Below are positions 1,550 through 5,836 of a DNA stretch of 64,000 bases, in pieces. The first letter of the stretch is position 1. Each line of letters starts with the position of its first letter. The translations under genes and the position numbers were made by a program. The stretch is from Bacillota bacterium (GTDB lineage: Bacteria > Bacillota > Clostridia > Acetivibrionales > DTU013). The notes beneath the pieces were generated by a model. That model made no database searches. It had not been told where the DNA came from and saw only the letters and a list, made by a program, of their open reading frames with translations. The stretch spans positions 1-64,000 of the forward strand of contig JAEYOP010000049.1 of NCBI GenBank assembly GCA_023411575.1. Direction: 5' to 3'.

Positions 1550-2419
1550 ATGCATTTTAAAGAAGTAAAGGCGATCCTGTCGCCGCACAACGGGATGAAT
1601 ATATACCGGGGCTGCACTCACGGTTGTATTTACTGCGATAGCAGAAGCAAATGCTATAACATGGAGCATGACTTTGAAGATATCGAGGTCAAAAGCAACG
1701 CGCCGGAGTTGCTGGAAGCGGCCCTCCGGAAAAAGCGCAAAAAGTGCATGATCGGAACCGGCTCCATGTGCGATCCGTATATGGAGATAGAGCTCAGGCT
1801 GCAGCATACCCGCAGGTGCCTTGAAATCATCGATCAATATGGCTTCGGACTCAGCATATTGACGAAATCCAACCGCATTCTGCGCGATCTGGATCTTCTG
1901 GAAAGGATACACAGGAAATCCAAATGCGTTGTACAGATCACACTGACGACCTATGACGAGAAGCTGTGCAGGATCCTGGAGCCGGCGGTCAGCACGACCA
2001 GGGAGCGCTTCGAGGTGCTGGAAATCATGCGGGATAGAGGAATTCCGACCGTTGTGTGGCTTGATCCGATTTTGCCTTTCATCAACGACACGGAAGAGAA
2101 TCTGCGCGGCATTCTGGACTATTGCGCCAGGGCCCGGGTATACGGCATTATTTGCTTCAGCATCGGGCTTACCCTGCGGGACGGCAATCGGGAATATTTC
2201 TATAAAAAGCTGGACGAGCATTTTCCCGGACTAAAGCAGAAATACCAGAAGAAATACGGCTACAGCTATGAAATACAAAGCGACAACAATGAAAGGCTGA
2301 TGGGCATTTTCTACGAGGAATGCGCAAAGCATGGGATTGTCAGCAATAGCCATGCCGTATTCGAGTATTTGCATACCTTTGAAGACAAGCAGCAAGTGGA
2401 GCAGATCAGCATGTTCTAG
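1550..2419 (+). CDS. Radical SAM protein, SPL/DNA-photolyase-like family (COG1533)
   Basis: N-terminal motif NIYRGCTHGCIYCDS (CxxxCxxC radical SAM cluster motif in the GCxHxCxYC context typical of SplB-like proteins). 289 aa with no SPASM-like C-terminal cysteine cluster. Confidence 0.7.
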   Translation: MHFKEVKAILSPHNGMNIYRGCTHGCIYCDSRSKCYNMEHDFEDIEVKSNAPELLEAALRKKRKKCMIGTGSMCDPYMEIELRLQHTRRCLEIIDQYGFGLSILTKSNRILRDLDLLERIHRKSKCVVQITLTTYDEKLCRILEPAVSTTRERFEVLEIMRDRGIPTVVWLDPILPFINDTEENLRGILDYCARARVYGIICFSIGLTLRDGNREYFYKKLDEHFPGLKQKYQKKYGYSYEIQSDNNERLMGIFYEECAKHGIVSNSHAVFEYLHTFEDKQQVEQISMF

Positions 2420-2508
2420 AATTTTGCTCCTTTGAGCGGAGGAAGAGCCTGGGCGAGACGCCTATTATGACGCGCGCGTTACAATATTATGACAATATTG
2501 TAAAACGA

Positions 2509-2543
2509 TTGACATTCGCGACAATCGCCTGATAGAATACAAA
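2509..2543 (+). promoter_or_regulatory. Sigma-A-like promoter (TTGACA-18-TAGAAT)
   Basis: ttgacattcgcgacaatcgcctgatagaat lies ~65 nt upstream of the small ORF at 2608. Confidence 0.35.
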
Positions 2544-2607
2544 ACAGGCCGCAATGAATTCATCTGGCGGCAAATAAATTGAATTCACAGGAAAGGAGGA
2601 TTACCCC

Positions 2608-2724
2608 ATGTATCTGCTCAGAACCGGACGGCCGGAACAAAAAAATACGATAGATGCAATATCATATGGTCGGATTGGAAATTTGCAAAAATGCGGGCTT
2701 AATCCTCTATCAGGTGAATGCTGA
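2608..2724 (+). CDS. Small ORF (38 aa, MYLLRTGRPEQKNTIDAISYGRIGNLQKCGLNPLSGEC), hypothetical
   Basis: Near-consensus RBS AAAGGAGGA 7 nt upstream of the ATG and a promoter-like element upstream. Below the 60-aa cutoff of the ORF track. No homology recognised. Confidence 0.3.
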   Translation: MYLLRTGRPEQKNTIDAISYGRIGNLQKCGLNPLSGEC

Positions 2725-2875
2725 GACATGGAATGCCGGACGGTATGTGATCCGGCGCCGGTATCCGAAAAGCGTTTATCCAGGGTGGCTGAGCCTGATT
2801 GACAGGATTTGGCCGCTTTTTATTTTATTCGTCCTTGTGGAAAATCCAATAAGCCAGGAAACAGAAAATAAATAT

Positions 2876-2910
2876 GGGTGGGTATGGTTCGACTCCATCC
2901 CCGCCCACCA
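2876..2910 (+). ncRNA. tRNA-like minihelix fragment (acceptor-like stem, T-loop GGTTCGACTCC, 3' CCCGCCCACCA)
   Basis: GGGTGGG..GGTTCGACTCC..CCCGCCC-ACCA. T-arm and acceptor mimic with an encoded CCA, but no D arm or anticodon arm. Not a complete tRNA. Confidence 0.3.
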
Positions 2911-3032
2911 TGGTTCTTGTTGTTGCTGTTTCCTATGCGGAGATTTCCGAATGGTCTCGCGGTGCCCCGATTTTCAGTGAACCGGGGTATGCCGGGGGCG
3001 GCAGGGACATTAGCCAGTTAACCGGAGGGTCG

Positions 3033-3133
3033 GAGGTTCGAGTCCTCCATTGCCTGTGCGGCGATTAGCTCAGCGGTAGAGCATTCGGCACGATAATGAA
3101 GGTTCGAGTCCTTCATCGGACGCAGGTCCGATT
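3033..3133 (+). ncRNA. Degenerate tRNA-like elements: T-arm GGAGGTTCGAGTCCTCC, an intact tRNA 5' half, a second T-arm GAAGGTTCGAGTCCTTC, then a perfect hairpin
   Basis: The tRNA 5' half GCGGCGATTAGCTCAGCGGTAGAGC spans 3058-3082. The second T-arm spans 3098-3114 and the perfect 7-bp hairpin ATCGGAC-GCAG-GTCCGAT spans 3116-3133. The anticodon stem is imperfect and overlaps the T-stem, and there is no 3' acceptor strand, so these are tRNA-derived or tRNA-mimicking RNA rather than a functional tRNA gene. Confidence 0.3.
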
Positions 3134-3510
3134 GGCGAAACGGTAAACGCAGTAGACTGAGGATCTACCATCACATGTCCAATGTGCATCAAACGGAACC
3201 TTTTGAAAGAATCCTCGGTGCCGGCAGGCTTCCTGCGGGCACACCGGCAGCAATGCCCTGAAGTGCGCGGATACCGGGTCCGGCAATCCGGCTGCCGCAG
3301 CGGACCATTCGAACCGGTCTTTGCAGGACGTACCTGCAAACCCGGAACGAATGCCGATGCGGCGATCGGAACGCCGGACCCTCAAGCGGCACTCCGCAAT
3401 TGCTCCGGGAGGATTCTTTACAGAGGTTCGCCGGGTAAGCCCGGGGCTTGCCGGCAGAGAAAACGGAAAAAACACGTGTTTTACATAAATAAAGCAAGAA
3501 GGTGAATGAA

Positions 3511-4653
3511 ATGAAAGTAAGGATCAAAAACGACGAGCGGGGACTTCTGTTCAAGGAGGGCAACTATGTGAGGTGCCTCATGCCCGGAAAGCACAGCTTT
3601 AACCCCTTTGTCGAGTACTCTGTGAAAGTGGCCGATTTGAACAAGGCGTTTGACACCGCCGGCAAAAACCTCAACATATTCCTCCAGGATCAGGAACTGG
3701 TCAGGGAGTTGACTGTCGTTGACGTACAAGACCATGAAATTGCCATACACTTTGAGGACGGCAAGCTTGCGGAGGTACTGAGAGCCGGAAAGTACGCATA
3801 TTGGAATGCGTTGAAAAAGCACAGCTTCATCCTGGTCGATACCAGGGACCCGGAAGTAAAGCCGGAGATGGACGTATCCGTTTATAGCAATCCCAAGCTG
3901 TCGGGCTGTGTCGGGTATTTTGACGTTGCGAATCACGAAAAGGGTATCCTTTACTATAACAATGTGATTATAAAGACCCTTGAGCCCGGAAGGTACTTCT
4001 TCTGGAAGAGCCCGGTCGCAGTGGCGGTAAAAAACGTCGACCTGAGGCTGCAGCAGATAGACATGACCGGCCAGGAGATCATGACGGAGGATAAGATCAC
4101 CCTCAGACTGAACTTCGTATGCCAGTACAGGATCACCGATCCGCTGAAGGTCGTGCAGATCAAATCCTTTGAGGAGCAGCTATACATTGTTTTGCAGTTG
4201 ATCCTGAGGGAGTACGTCGGCTCTCTGAAGCTGGATGACCTGCTGACGAAAAAGCAGGAGATCGGCGCCTATGTGCTGGAAAGGCTAAAGGAGAAGAACA
4301 GGGAATTCGGTGTGGAGTTCCTGTACACAGGGCTGAAGGATGTCATCCTGCCCGGGGATATCAAGGAGATCCTGAATACCGTCCTGATTGCGGAGAAGAA
4401 GGCCCAGGCCAACGTAATCACCAGGCGGGAGGAGATCGCTTCTACCAGGAGCCTGCTGAATACGGCCAGGCTTATGGAGGAGAACCAGACGCTTTACAGG
4501 CTGAAAGAGCTGGAGTACCTGGAGAAGATCTGCGAGAAGATCGGCAATGTTTCGCTGACAGGCGGGGGCAGCCTGCTGGAGCAGCTGAACACCTTGCTGT
4601 CCGGGCGCAATAACAATAAACGGGTAATAGAAAGTAGTGGTAAAAATGATTGA
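3511..4653 (+). CDS. SPFH/Band-7 domain protein (no N-terminal TM helix, C-terminal coiled coil)
   Basis: ERGLLFKEGNYVRCLMPGKHSFNPFVEYSVKVADL matches the start of the SPFH domain. RBS AAGAAGG sits before the ATG at 3511, so the track's GTG at 3502 is trimmed. Its stop overlaps the rtcB start. Confidence 0.75.
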   Translation: MKVRIKNDERGLLFKEGNYVRCLMPGKHSFNPFVEYSVKVADLNKAFDTAGKNLNIFLQDQELVRELTVVDVQDHEIAIHFEDGKLAEVLRAGKYAYWNALKKHSFILVDTRDPEVKPEMDVSVYSNPKLSGCVGYFDVANHEKGILYYNNVIIKTLEPGRYFFWKSPVAVAVKNVDLRLQQIDMTGQEIMTEDKITLRLNFVCQYRITDPLKVVQIKSFEEQLYIVLQLILREYVGSLKLDDLLTKKQEIGAYVLERLKEKNREFGVEFLYTGLKDVILPGDIKEILNTVLIAEKKAQANVITRREEIASTRSLLNTARLMEENQTLYRLKELEYLEKICEKIGNVSLTGGGSLLEQLNTLLSGRNNNKRVIESSGKND

Positions 4654-5836
4654 AATCAAAGGAAAGTACAATACGGCAAAAGTTTATACGGACTGCCTGG
4701 AGAGCCAGGCGGCGGCCCAGATCCTGGAGCTTTGCAACCAGGAGTTCGCAAAGGACAGCATCATAAGGATCATGCCGGATACCCATGCCGGCGCGGGGTG
4801 CACCATCGGGACCACGATGACCGTCTCGGACAGGATCGTACCGAATCTTGTCGGGGTGGATATCGGCTGCGGCATGGAAACGGTCAGGCTGAAGGACAAG
4901 GAAATCGATTTGCGGAAGCTGGATCAGGTAATCCACGAGCATGTTCCTTCCGGGTTTGACATCCGCAAAAAGCAGCATCCTTATGCAGAGAGCATCAACC
5001 TGAATGACCTGGTATGCAAAAAGCATATCAGCATGGACAGGGCATTGCAGAGTGTCGGCACCCTAGGGGGCGGAAACCATTTTATCGAGGTGAATAAAAG
5101 CGACGCAGGCGAGTTGTTTCTTGTTGTTCACTCCGGGAGCAGATACCTTGGCAAGCAGGTTGCGGAGCATTATCAGGAAAAGGGTTACAAGGAGCTGACC
5201 GACACCAGCATCGCCGTTGGCGAGGTCATCAAAAAGCTGAAAGCCGAAGGCCGCGAAAGGGAAATCCAGAAAGAAATCCATAAAATAAAGCCGGAGCATT
5301 TCAGCAGGCAGCTTGCATATGTCCAGGGGCAGAGCTACAGGGACTACTTAAGCGACATGAAAACGGTACAGAAATACGCGGTGCTCAACCGGAAGGCAAT
5401 CATCGACGAAATCCTGAAGCGGATGGGCTTTGGCGCGGCGGAGCAATTCACCACGGTTCACAATTATATCGACCTTGAAGGGATGATCCTGAGAAAGGGT
5501 GCTATTTCGGCACGGCTGGGCGAAAAGGTGCTGATTCCGATCAATATGCGGGACGGCAGCCTGATCTGCAGGGGAAAGGGCAACGCCGACTGGAACTATT
5601 CCGCACCCCATGGGGCGGGGAGGCTGATGAGCAGGAGCCAGGCGAAGGAGAGGATCACACTGGAGGAATTTGAAAAATCCATGGAAGGAATTTATTCCAC
5701 TACGGTGAATCGCTCTACGCTGGACGAATGCGCCCTTGCCTATAAGCCCATGGAGGAAATCGTCAATAATGTACAGGATACGGTTGAAATCCTTGACGTG
5801 ATCAAGCCGATCTACAATTTCAAAGCCGCAGAGTAA
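4646..5836 (+). CDS. rtcB: RNA-splicing ligase RtcB
   Basis: Hallmark RtcB motifs PDTHAGAG, GGGNHFIE and PHGAGR. ATG at 4646 lies 5 nt before the SPFH stop codon (translational coupling). Confidence 0.9.
   Translation: MIEIKGKYNTAKVYTDCLESQAAAQILELCNQEFAKDSIIRIMPDTHAGAGCTIGTTMTVSDRIVPNLVGVDIGCGMETVRLKDKEIDLRKLDQVIHEHVPSGFDIRKKQHPYAESINLNDLVCKKHISMDRALQSVGTLGGGNHFIEVNKSDAGELFLVVHSGSRYLGKQVAEHYQEKGYKELTDTSIAVGEVIKKLKAEGREREIQKEIHKIKPEHFSRQLAYVQGQSYRDYLSDMKTVQKYAVLNRKAIIDEILKRMGFGAAEQFTTVHNYIDLEGMILRKGAISARLGEKVLIPINMRDGSLICRGKGNADWNYSAPHGAGRLMSRSQAKERITLEEFEKSMEGIYSTTVNRSTLDECALAYKPMEEIVNNVQDTVEILDVIKPIYNFKAAE

Follow-up and report, generated by a model that had tools for sequence, protein, structure and literature searches.

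YrlA, the tRNA-like Y RNA of bacterial Ro60 particles, was defined beside the Ro60 gene rsr and on the same strand (Chen et al. 2014, PMC4201824). In M. smegmatis it is cleaved by RNase P and CCA is added to it (PMC4201824), and both YrlA and YrlB are processed out of an operon transcript and act in trans (PMC4201824; also according to the summary in bioRxiv 10.1101/312249). The same summary attributes to Burroughs and Aravind (2016) the prediction of a band-7-associated tRNA-like RNA (b7a-tRNA), places b7a-tRNA/YrlA beside band-7 and RtcB, mentions that YrlA occasionally adjoins band-7, and describes the prediction as not validated (bioRxiv 10.1101/312249). Here we analyzed a 1.1-kb gap between a radical SAM gene and an SPFH/band-7 gene in a 64-kb stretch of a Bacillota bacterium contig (JAEYOP010000049.1; the whole stretch is called the window), where an initial annotation had proposed a tRNA-mimicking or large non-coding RNA (ncRNA) linked to rtcB. 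Positions 2911–3430 of this gap are, with near certainty, a single conserved, multi-domain structured RNA of approximately 520 nt of the tRNA-mimic class, and just as surely a non-coding one, whose constant gene partner is the SPFH protein and not the RNA ligase RtcB. SPFH/band-7 and Rot/TROVE modules are reportedly presented as scaffolds with cognate ncRNAs in the abstract of the 2016 study.

The observation behind the initial annotation was confirmed, every element that it listed being recovered in the sequence, and its interpretation was partly supported. The RNA and its parts are laid out as follows:

2926–3001, plus strand: 5' domain, a three-way junction, with covariation; a covariance model of this block (R1, see below) scores 59.4 bits here
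2929–2933/2994–2998: P0 of the 5' domain, plus strand
2937–2960, plus strand: P1 hairpin of the 5' domain
2961–2993, plus strand: P2 of the 5' domain, with the invariant GGUGC...GUAUGCC
3022–3088, plus strand: module 1, a YrlA-type permuted tRNA-like module with a YrlA match and a covarying enclosing stem
3022–3026, plus strand: module 1, 3' strand of the anticodon stem (CCGGA), followed by a 5-nt V region
3032–3048, plus strand: module 1, T-arm GGAGGTTCGAGTCCTCC
3049–3065, plus strand: module 1, loop-closed acceptor hairpin
3068–3082, plus strand: module 1, D-arm
3084–3088, plus strand: module 1, 5' strand of the anticodon stem (UUCGG)
3098–3168, plus strand: module 2, permuted and tRNA-like as well, with all four arms including a closed anticodon arm
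3098–3114, plus strand: module 2, T-arm GAAGGTTCGAGTCCTTC
3115–3132, plus strand: module 2, acceptor hairpin, covarying among relatives
3134–3151, plus strand: module 2, D-arm
3152–3168, plus strand: module 2, anticodon arm GUAGA-CUGAGGA-UCUAC with the canonical 7-nt loop CUGAGGA
3196–3429, plus strand: 3' domain of 234 nt, identified by fold (z = -8.8), covariation, and nhmmer
3196–3203/3422–3429, 3210–3216/3409–3415, 3244–3247/3405–3408, and 3260–3268/3386–3394: nested helices of the 3' domain
3269–3276 (GGAUACCG), 3381–3386 (CUCAAG), and 3393–3396 (UCCG): near-invariant unpaired motifs of the 3' domain
3276–3381: variable distal hairpin of the 3' domain

As judged from its predicted fold, module 1 is a tRNA opened in the anticodon loop, exactly the YrlA design, and module 2 a tRNA opened in the variable region. 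The enclosing stem of module 1 covaries, with CCGGA/UUCGG in the window versus CCUUA/UAAGG in L086 and L087 (L-numbers denote loci of the collection described below). The segment GCGGCGATTAGCTCAGCGGTAGAGC at 3058–3082, correctly located by the initial annotation, had been misread as a tRNA 5' half lacking its 3' acceptor strand; it is the 3' strand of the closed acceptor-like hairpin plus the D-arm, within the permuted module. The T-arm GAAGGTTCGAGTCCTTC lies exactly where it had been placed, whereas GGAGGTTCGAGTCCTCC and the 7-bp acceptor hairpin of module 2 are present but had been positioned one base too high (3033–3049 and 3116–3133, respectively). The GC-rich stretch noted further downstream forms a single long imperfect hairpin at 3200–3430 (z = -8.8). 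Clustering of the T-loop consensus GGTTCGANTCC is not due to chance: its 3 copies in 64 kb are all on the plus strand and all inside 2886–3111, the chance expectation is 0.19 per window, and 3 copies were reached in 0 of 100 shuffles. Not all relatives have both modules: Paenibacillus-type loci (e.g., L010) contain the module-2 type alone, and the two-module form was seen in Clostridia, Thermoactinomycetaceae, and some spirochaetes. A perfect palindrome, AAAACACGTGTTTT (3470–3483), is located past the 3' end of the RNA and ahead of the ribosome-binding site (RBS) of SPFH, and recurs with small changes in L081, L084, L088, and L090. The description of the gap as free of open reading frames (ORFs) holds for credible genes, but mechanical ORFs of 107–124 amino acids do occur (2654–2980 and 3182–3505 on the plus strand, 3113–3475 and 3189–3563 on the minus strand). 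The one of these 4 that was searched (2654–2977) has no Pfam match, and covarying RNA helices overlap 3 of them.

To compare this RNA with described families, we scanned Rfam over 2300–3700 at E ≤ 10 and over the whole window at gathering score. The best match was YrlA (RF02553) at 3004–3115, with 37.1 bits (E 3.7e-6) and thus about half of the gathering score of 69, and the tRNA model matched 3062–3118 (34 bits, anticodon arm missing) and 3126–3195 (27.8 bits); nothing else meaningful was found. YrlA was also the best Rfam match in Ruminiclostridium cellobioparum (L087, 36.4 bits), and L010 reached 19 bits. ROOL, GOLLD, OLE, raiA, tmRNA, T-box, and riboswitch families gave no match at E ≤ 10 in 2300–3700 and none at gathering score across the whole window, which speaks against the ROOL/GOLLD-type identity considered by the initial annotation. 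Matches of miRNA/hairpin type on both strands were discarded as spurious products of the long hairpin at 3200–3430. ARAGORN found no tRNA gene in the whole 64-kb window, and in place of the complete cloverleaf with open acceptor ends of a functional tRNA gene, both acceptor stems of the RNA are loop-closed. The large 5' and 3' flanking domains belong to no Rfam family.

The RNA shares with YrlA the permuted tRNA-like domain (V region, T-arm, loop-closed acceptor, D-arm, and enclosing anticodon-like stem), in which covariation supports T-like and D-like stem-loops with an acceptor-like stem-loop between them, as well as its location within an RNA-repair operon near rtcB. Unlike YrlA, it scores under the gathering threshold, has no Ro60 (rsr) gene adjacent on the same strand, lacks the Ro60-contact motif GNCGAAN0-1G (absent from 2901–3440), measures approximately 520 nt instead of approximately 110 nt, contains a second module and 5' and 3' domains that have no YrlA counterpart, and has SPFH as its protein partner. 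The initial annotation had noticed the lack of Rsr, and indeed TROVE/Ro60 gave no Pfam match in any window ORF of at least 365 amino acids, nor among the gene clusters common to the 80 loci of our collection. The window RNA therefore does not qualify as YrlA as defined, and its module 1 probably works like the YrlA tRNA-like domain. The b7a-tRNA is closer in context: as summarized, it is a predicted tRNA-resembling ncRNA next to band-7/SPFH and RtcB, proposed as a repair cofactor or scaffold, and RlaP, reportedly defined in the 2016 paper, recurs in our loci. Here too a tRNA-like ncRNA adjoins a band-7/SPFH gene, in association with RtcB or another repair ligase, though not universally. Thus, the window RNA matches the 2016 prediction in its summarized form, and the arrangement, a tRNA-like RNA beside rtcB without Rsr, is not new as the initial annotation had supposed. 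That summary speaks only of a tRNA-like molecule, and not of a junction, tandem modules, or a 234-nt domain; the four-arm module, the tRNA-Tyr-like gene described below, or both could be meant. The b7a-tRNA has no Rfam family. As far as we could verify, neither the size of the RNA nor its tandem arrangement of permuted modules nor its two domains without tRNA likeness have been described so far.

To analyze the conservation of the RNA we collected 80 loci using the SPFH protein as sole query. A T-loop on the coding strand, 250–450 nt upstream of the SPFH start, was present in approximately 72 of the 78 loci with upstream sequence, and none of these 78 had one on the opposite strand. Conserved blocks recurred in the order UAUGC - hairpin - GCRGUGC - hairpin - GUAUGC, then the T-loop(s), GGAUACCG, and CUYAAG...YCCG. 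The covariance model R1, which represents the 5' block only and is free of tRNA-like sequence, was searched against 1.08 Mb on both strands and matched 86 of 89 sources with upstream sequence, once each, on the plus strand and 370–680 nt before SPFH; the single extra match was weak (E 0.09). For the 3' domain, which spans more than 400 alignment columns and includes the variable hairpin, nhmmer searches with its two halves and pair counts on a MAFFT alignment were used instead of a covariance model. Both halves were detected in 45 sources and one half in 11, on the plus strand only and just upstream of SPFH. In all loci the RNA 3' end lies 55–140 nt from the SPFH start. RNAalifold on ten full-length relatives predicted 103 pairs, 56 of them with compensatory changes, and in each of 3 alignments covariation was far above both the shuffled and the slid-partner controls:

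5' domain and module 1, 29 diverse sequences: 85% of cells paired, covariation 0.504, shuffled 0.198 (0/500), slid ≤ 0.146
3' domain, 28 sequences: 76% of cells paired, covariation 0.438, shuffled 0.200 (0/500), slid ≤ 0.184
R1-aligned set, 82 distinct sequences: 84% of cells paired, covariation 0.510, shuffled 0.213 (0/500), slid ≤ 0.137

The R1-aligned set is fitted to the model and so leans to structure; the other two are plain MAFFT alignments. In the first alignment the helices of module 1 covary too, and the order T-arm, acceptor hairpin, D-arm is kept among relatives. With homologous regions this strongly covarying in related genomes and YrlA as the best, if sub-gathering, Rfam match, the proposal of a large tRNA-mimicking ncRNA is upheld. 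We also approached the linkage to SPFH from the RNA side, scanning metagenomes and viral contigs with the pattern GGATACCG...CCTYAAG...CTCCGC. Three viral matches were all due to chance (no T-loop, no SPFH), as were most of the 80 metagenome matches. The 7 matches with upstream T-loops were genuine, and in 6 of the 6 with enough sequence SPFH followed 65–127 nt downstream; the other 76 had neither T-loops nor SPFH. With only 7 genuine matches, this linkage test is weaker than planned. Plasmids gave no DNA match to the RNA, and the family ranges over Bacillota (Clostridia, Paenibacillus, Thermoactinomycetaceae) and Spirochaetota.

The genes flanking the gap are:

1550–2419: radical SAM gene, 5' neighbour of the gap
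3511–4653, plus strand: SPFH/band-7 'slipin family' protein (Pfam Band_7, 1.5e-29; PDB stomatin, 4.7e-17)
4637–5836, plus strand: RNA ligase of the RtcB family, whose gene overlaps the SPFH gene end (Pfam RtcB, 4e-65)

The SPFH ORF is listed from 3502, and the ATG at 3511 is the likelier start. Homologues of 46–88% identity are present in all fetched loci, from Clostridia, Paenibacillus, Thermoactinomycetaceae, and spirochaetes. The protein has no transmembrane segment or hydrophobic anchor, and in its AlphaFold (AF2) model a pair of N-terminal beta repeats is followed by the SPFH domain and a single long helix (predicted local distance difference test, pLDDT, 77; predicted template modeling score, pTM, 0.54). 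The order that defines the SPFH superfamily, an SPFH domain followed by a long helix, is supported by Pfam, the PDB match, the model, and Foldseek. Foldseek aligned the model with the cage-forming stomatin, HflK/C, prohibitin, and erlin over approximately 250 columns, and with the major vault protein (MVP) over 411–480 columns, that is, full length, with the highest query TM-scores (0.43–0.48). At most, this model suggests that the SPFH protein is a soluble ring or cage former. It has the domain order of MVP (beta repeats, SPFH 'shoulder', long helix), and vaults too carry a small non-coding RNA; however, vault RNA has no tRNA likeness of this kind and is bound via TEP1, a TROVE protein, and not via MVP. 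The likeness to vaults and SPFH cages is drawn from one AF2 model (pLDDT 77) and a Foldseek alignment of high root-mean-square deviation (rmsd).

The initial annotation had tied the RNA to rtcB, but the RNA follows the SPFH gene, and many loci have no adjacent RtcB or have another ligase. Recurring neighbours in the 80 loci were two WYL/WCX helix-turn-helix (HTH) regulators (34 and 32 loci), RtcB (27), and the RlaP nucleotidyltransferase (11). RtcB is of two types, placed downstream of SPFH or upstream of the RNA. In L089 (4288–6426) a T4 Rnl1-type ligase and a KTI12/AAA_33/HD (kinase/HD) protein stand in place of RtcB, and in L088 and L090 no ligase is adjacent. The order in R. cellobioparum is RlaP, RlaP, WYL/WCX, two small genes, RNA, SPFH, and RtcB, and in Paenibacillus the RNA lies between rtcB and SPFH. 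Because the SPFH gene is constant and the ligase interchangeable, we regard the RNA and SPFH together as the core of the system. The WYL/WCX regulators are paired and usually upstream of the RNA (L086 2720–5021, L087 2741–5078); they are absent from the sub-clade of the window, which has the leader and terminator described below, and this distribution suggests that the two may be alternative control schemes. The radical SAM gene was ruled out as a component of the system, with a homologue in 0 of 80 SPFH loci and an upstream gene that varies among relatives (radical SAM in the window, GlyRS in L081, different ones in further loci). The remaining window genes, as classified by Pfam on ORFs of at least 365 amino acids, belong to carbohydrate metabolism. 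In the closest relative, L084, RtcB is followed by genes for a phage-type integrase, 2 kb downstream, and for an R2K ATP-grasp protein (4159–5163). This neighbourhood hints that the module may be mobile.

In the close relatives L081, L084, L088, and L090 (SPFH 85–88% identical) the whole 1.1-kb layout is common, being shared by four to five relatives, with a hairpin between leader ORF and terminator in its order. Upstream of the RNA, this layout comprises in the window:

2479–2503, plus strand: perfect palindrome TTACAATATT-N5-AATATTGTAA, directly upstream of the -35 box, kept in L081, L088, and L090
2509–2538, plus strand: sigma-70-type promoter (TTGACA, 18-nt spacer, TG-extended TAGAAT), kept in L081, L088, and L090
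2593–2601, plus strand: leader Shine-Dalgarno (SD) sequence AAGGAGGAT, preceding the 38-amino acid ORF
2608–2724, plus strand: leader ORF of 38 amino acids (MYLLRTGRPEQKNTIDAISYGRIGNLQKCGLNPLSGEC) with a strong RBS
2782–2830, plus strand: intrinsic terminator/attenuator, a 16-bp interrupted hairpin followed by UUUUUAUUUUAUU (minimum free energy -19.2 kcal/mol)
2876–2910, plus strand: acceptor/T-arm minihelix ending in ACCA, a tRNA-Tyr(GUA)-type (type II) gene with positions 9–49 deleted

The palindrome at 2479–2503 occurs only once in the window, where chance predicts 0 copies, and is a probable operator; the promoter agrees with the consensus at 11 of 12 positions and has the TG extension as well. 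The leader ORF had escaped the initial annotation, and its position is kept in 3 relatives: ORFs of 36–44 amino acids with the common motif WLNP..EC occupy the equivalent place in L081, L088, and L090. Its SD sequence is able to pair with GGCTTAATCCTCT (approximately 2690–2702) inside the ORF, and RNAalifold predicts this SD/anti-SD helix with conserved GGCUUAAUCCUC and one compensatory change in L081. The terminator stem and T-run are kept in L081, L084, L088, and L090. A simple terminator scanner reported no site in 2300–3700, the terminator at 2782–2830 having been missed by the same scanner; we saw no terminator between the RNA and the SPFH RBS. The compared relatives have no conserved promoter between the terminator and the RNA, and no convincing conserved alternative pairing that could act as anti-terminator was found in the leader. 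Operator, promoter, leader ORF, and terminator together look like a putative attenuator of the repair operon.

The minihelix, whose coordinates in the initial annotation were exact, folds with -20.2 kcal/mol (z = -4.1). The deleted tRNA positions 9–49 are the D, anticodon, and long variable arms, removed in the window as one clean 51-column gap, and the remaining stem is kept by a compensatory change (A6-U67 to G-C). At the homologous place ARAGORN finds an intact 86-nt tRNA in the relatives: Tyr GUA in L081 (5326–5411), L084 (139–224), and L088 (2290–2375), and in L090 (1486–1571) a 'Cys' tRNA with the anticodon GCA on the same long-variable-arm body. Because a GCA anticodon sits on this Tyr-type body, the L090 tRNA does not seem to be an ordinary decoder, and the upstream tRNA may be an accessory part of the system instead. 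The minihelix 3' end coincides with the start of the conserved RNA. Since it abuts the RNA and no conserved promoter follows the terminator, regulated read-through and tRNA-type processing of the RNA 5' end are suggested. tRNA-linked processing of neighbouring RNAs is known from tRNAs in rRNA operons and from MALAT1-mascRNA; as in those cases, a tRNA or CCA minihelix lies at the edge of the RNA, here the 5' edge, where RNase P and 3'-end enzymes would recognize it. It differs from them in being confined to the sub-clade of the window and in being a prediction. In other lineages the upstream tRNA or minihelix is absent and the RNA has its own promoter, with a TATACT -10 box approximately 7 nt before the RNA.

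A possible relative occurs in enterobacteria, where a slipin 37% identical to the SPFH protein is followed by a nucleotidyltransferase in E. coli and Citrobacter, beside rtcR in Citrobacter. Upstream of this slipin operon lies an unannotated gap of 450–530 nt:

L182, 4463–4991: gap in E. coli (CP061233.1)
L183, 4544–4991: gap in Citrobacter freundii
L184, 3001–3529: gap in a third locus

Within the gap are a sigma-54-type promoter and a T-arm (UGGGUUCGAUUCCCA), together with a closed hairpin of acceptor type that shows covariation between E. coli and Citrobacter. Of 5426 complete E. coli genomes, 1628 (approximately 30%) contain at least 80% of the E. coli query. Because R1 finds no match in the E. 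coli and Citrobacter intergenic regions, homology is argued here only from the T-arm, the acceptor hairpin, and the gene context, and the gap, if related at all, would be a distant, reduced relative.

The structure and conservation of the RNA are observations, as are its constant location and orientation immediately 5' of the SPFH gene, and we consider it reasonably probable that a stable tRNA-mimic RNA and its SPFH partner take part in RNA repair. The RNA would be co-transcribed with SPFH-RtcB, because no terminator was seen between the RNA and the SPFH RBS and, in Paenibacillus, the RNA lies between rtcB and SPFH. In the lineage of the window, transcription would start from the operator-controlled promoter at 2509–2538 and read through the conditional terminator. 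The tRNA-Tyr-derived minihelix, and possibly the modules too, would be cut by tRNA-processing enzymes, setting the ends of the RNA. The mature RNA would then bind the SPFH protein, which is soluble and probably forms a cage or ring, and the tRNA-like elbows of the RNA would join RtcB (or Rnl1, RlaP, or tRNA-modifying enzymes) to damaged tRNA-type substrates. In this way the RNA-SPFH particle would correspond to the Ro60-Y RNA particle, with SPFH in the place of Ro60. Several points weigh against this proposal. While the identity of the RNA is near certain, everything concerning its function is inferred; many loci lack RtcB; the SPFH model reaches moderate confidence and aligns with the vault protein at a high rmsd; the 3' domain went undetected by the sequence hidden Markov model in the most distant lineages (L049–L080); R1 does not match the enterobacterial regions; and the RNA runs straight into the SPFH mRNA, which a cis-acting leader fits equally well.

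Such a leader, the 5' untranslated region of the SPFH(-RtcB) mRNA, would sense tRNA damage or translation stress, for example by cleavage of the tRNA-like modules or by factor binding, and control the downstream genes. The distance of 55–140 nt to the SPFH start in all loci, the lack of a terminator between RNA and SPFH, and the upstream leader ORF and terminator of this lineage, which are typical of attenuation, all agree with it, and E. coli rtcBA is reportedly regulated by damaged tRNA via RtcR (PMC7790460). We nevertheless consider a cis-acting role rather unlikely: 520 nt, two complete tRNA folds, and invariant unpaired motifs are far beyond the needs of known leaders, the homologous RNAs YrlA and YrlB act in trans after processing from an operon transcript, the regulators encoded nearby are proteins (WYL/WCX; RtcR in Citrobacter), and a tRNA or minihelix bordering the RNA on its 5' side points to release of a separate RNA species. 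The closed anticodon arm could also serve as an anticodon-nuclease sentinel or decoy that imitates the host tRNAs targeted by ribotoxins, its cleavage soaking up the toxin or triggering and guiding RtcB repair, which would be compatible with the proposed repair particle as a sub-mechanism. We examined this arm by a regular-expression census, made without a null model, over the window (3152–3168) and L002, L003, L007, L010, L013, L014, L016, L021, L024, L025, L029, L031, L033, L034, L040, L043, L046, L050, L051, L081, L084, L087, L088, and L090. The 7-nt loop keeps U33 and purine 37 on a constant stem as the triplet changes, with GAG, GUU, UUU, UUC, GUA, GUC, GCA, UCC, and UCU among close relatives. 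PrrC, zymocin, and colicin E5 target Lys UUU, Glu UUC, and GUN anticodons, respectively. The extra upstream tRNA (Tyr GUA in 3 relatives, GCA in L090) would also suit a sentinel. Against it, besides the nature of the census, module 1 has no anticodon loop, a clean anticodon arm was not obtained in many loci, and no nuclease gene is linked, and we hold this explanation to be improbable.

Two further explanations would reduce the region to something ordinary. It could encode a common YrlA serving a Ro60 (Rsr) protein whose gene lies elsewhere in the genome, as the top Rfam match might imply, but a score of half the gathering threshold, the lack of the Ro60-contact motif from 2901–3440, and the lack of TROVE both in the window (ORFs of at least 365 amino acids) and in the clusters common to the 80 loci make this very unlikely, the more so as defined YrlA adjoins rsr on the same strand (PMC4201824). 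Remnants of decayed tRNA genes at an old integration site, the alternative offered by the initial annotation, would agree with the minihelix at 2876–2910, truly a tRNA gene with an internal deletion, with the absence of ARAGORN tRNAs from the window, and with the phage-type integrase 2 kb downstream in L084. Because of the covariation, this explanation is contradicted for 2911–3430 and stands for 2876–2910 only: module order, spacing, and pairing are kept via compensatory changes across Bacillota and Spirochaetota, the modules are invariably on the SPFH strand, the non-tRNA domains are conserved as well, and the flanking genes vary by locus. As an account of the whole region, we regard it as extremely unlikely. 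The repair proposal can be carried further, tentatively and at rather low likelihood, by supposing a cage-type ribonucleoprotein of bacteria, built from the RNA and the SPFH protein, the latter free of membrane anchors and similar to the vault protein. On it the tandem permuted tRNA mimics would be displayed, their rapidly changing anticodon loops would bait anticodon nucleases or match attacked tRNAs, and RlaP and interchangeable ligases (RtcB, Rnl1) would be recruited for resealing. If true, this would be a previously uncharacterised RNA-repair organelle.

Altogether, these results show that the window contains a real, widespread, and elaborate tRNA-mimic RNA that belongs to the predicted class of RNA-repair-associated tRNA-like RNAs. 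Here the mimic is found inside a far larger conserved RNA than YrlA, with an SPFH partner instead of Ro60 and an interchangeable ligase, which point to the RNA-SPFH pair as the core. The family is widespread and has no Rfam model, and adding one would stop such regions from being read as broken tRNAs. An enterobacterial relative would make this biology testable in E. coli.

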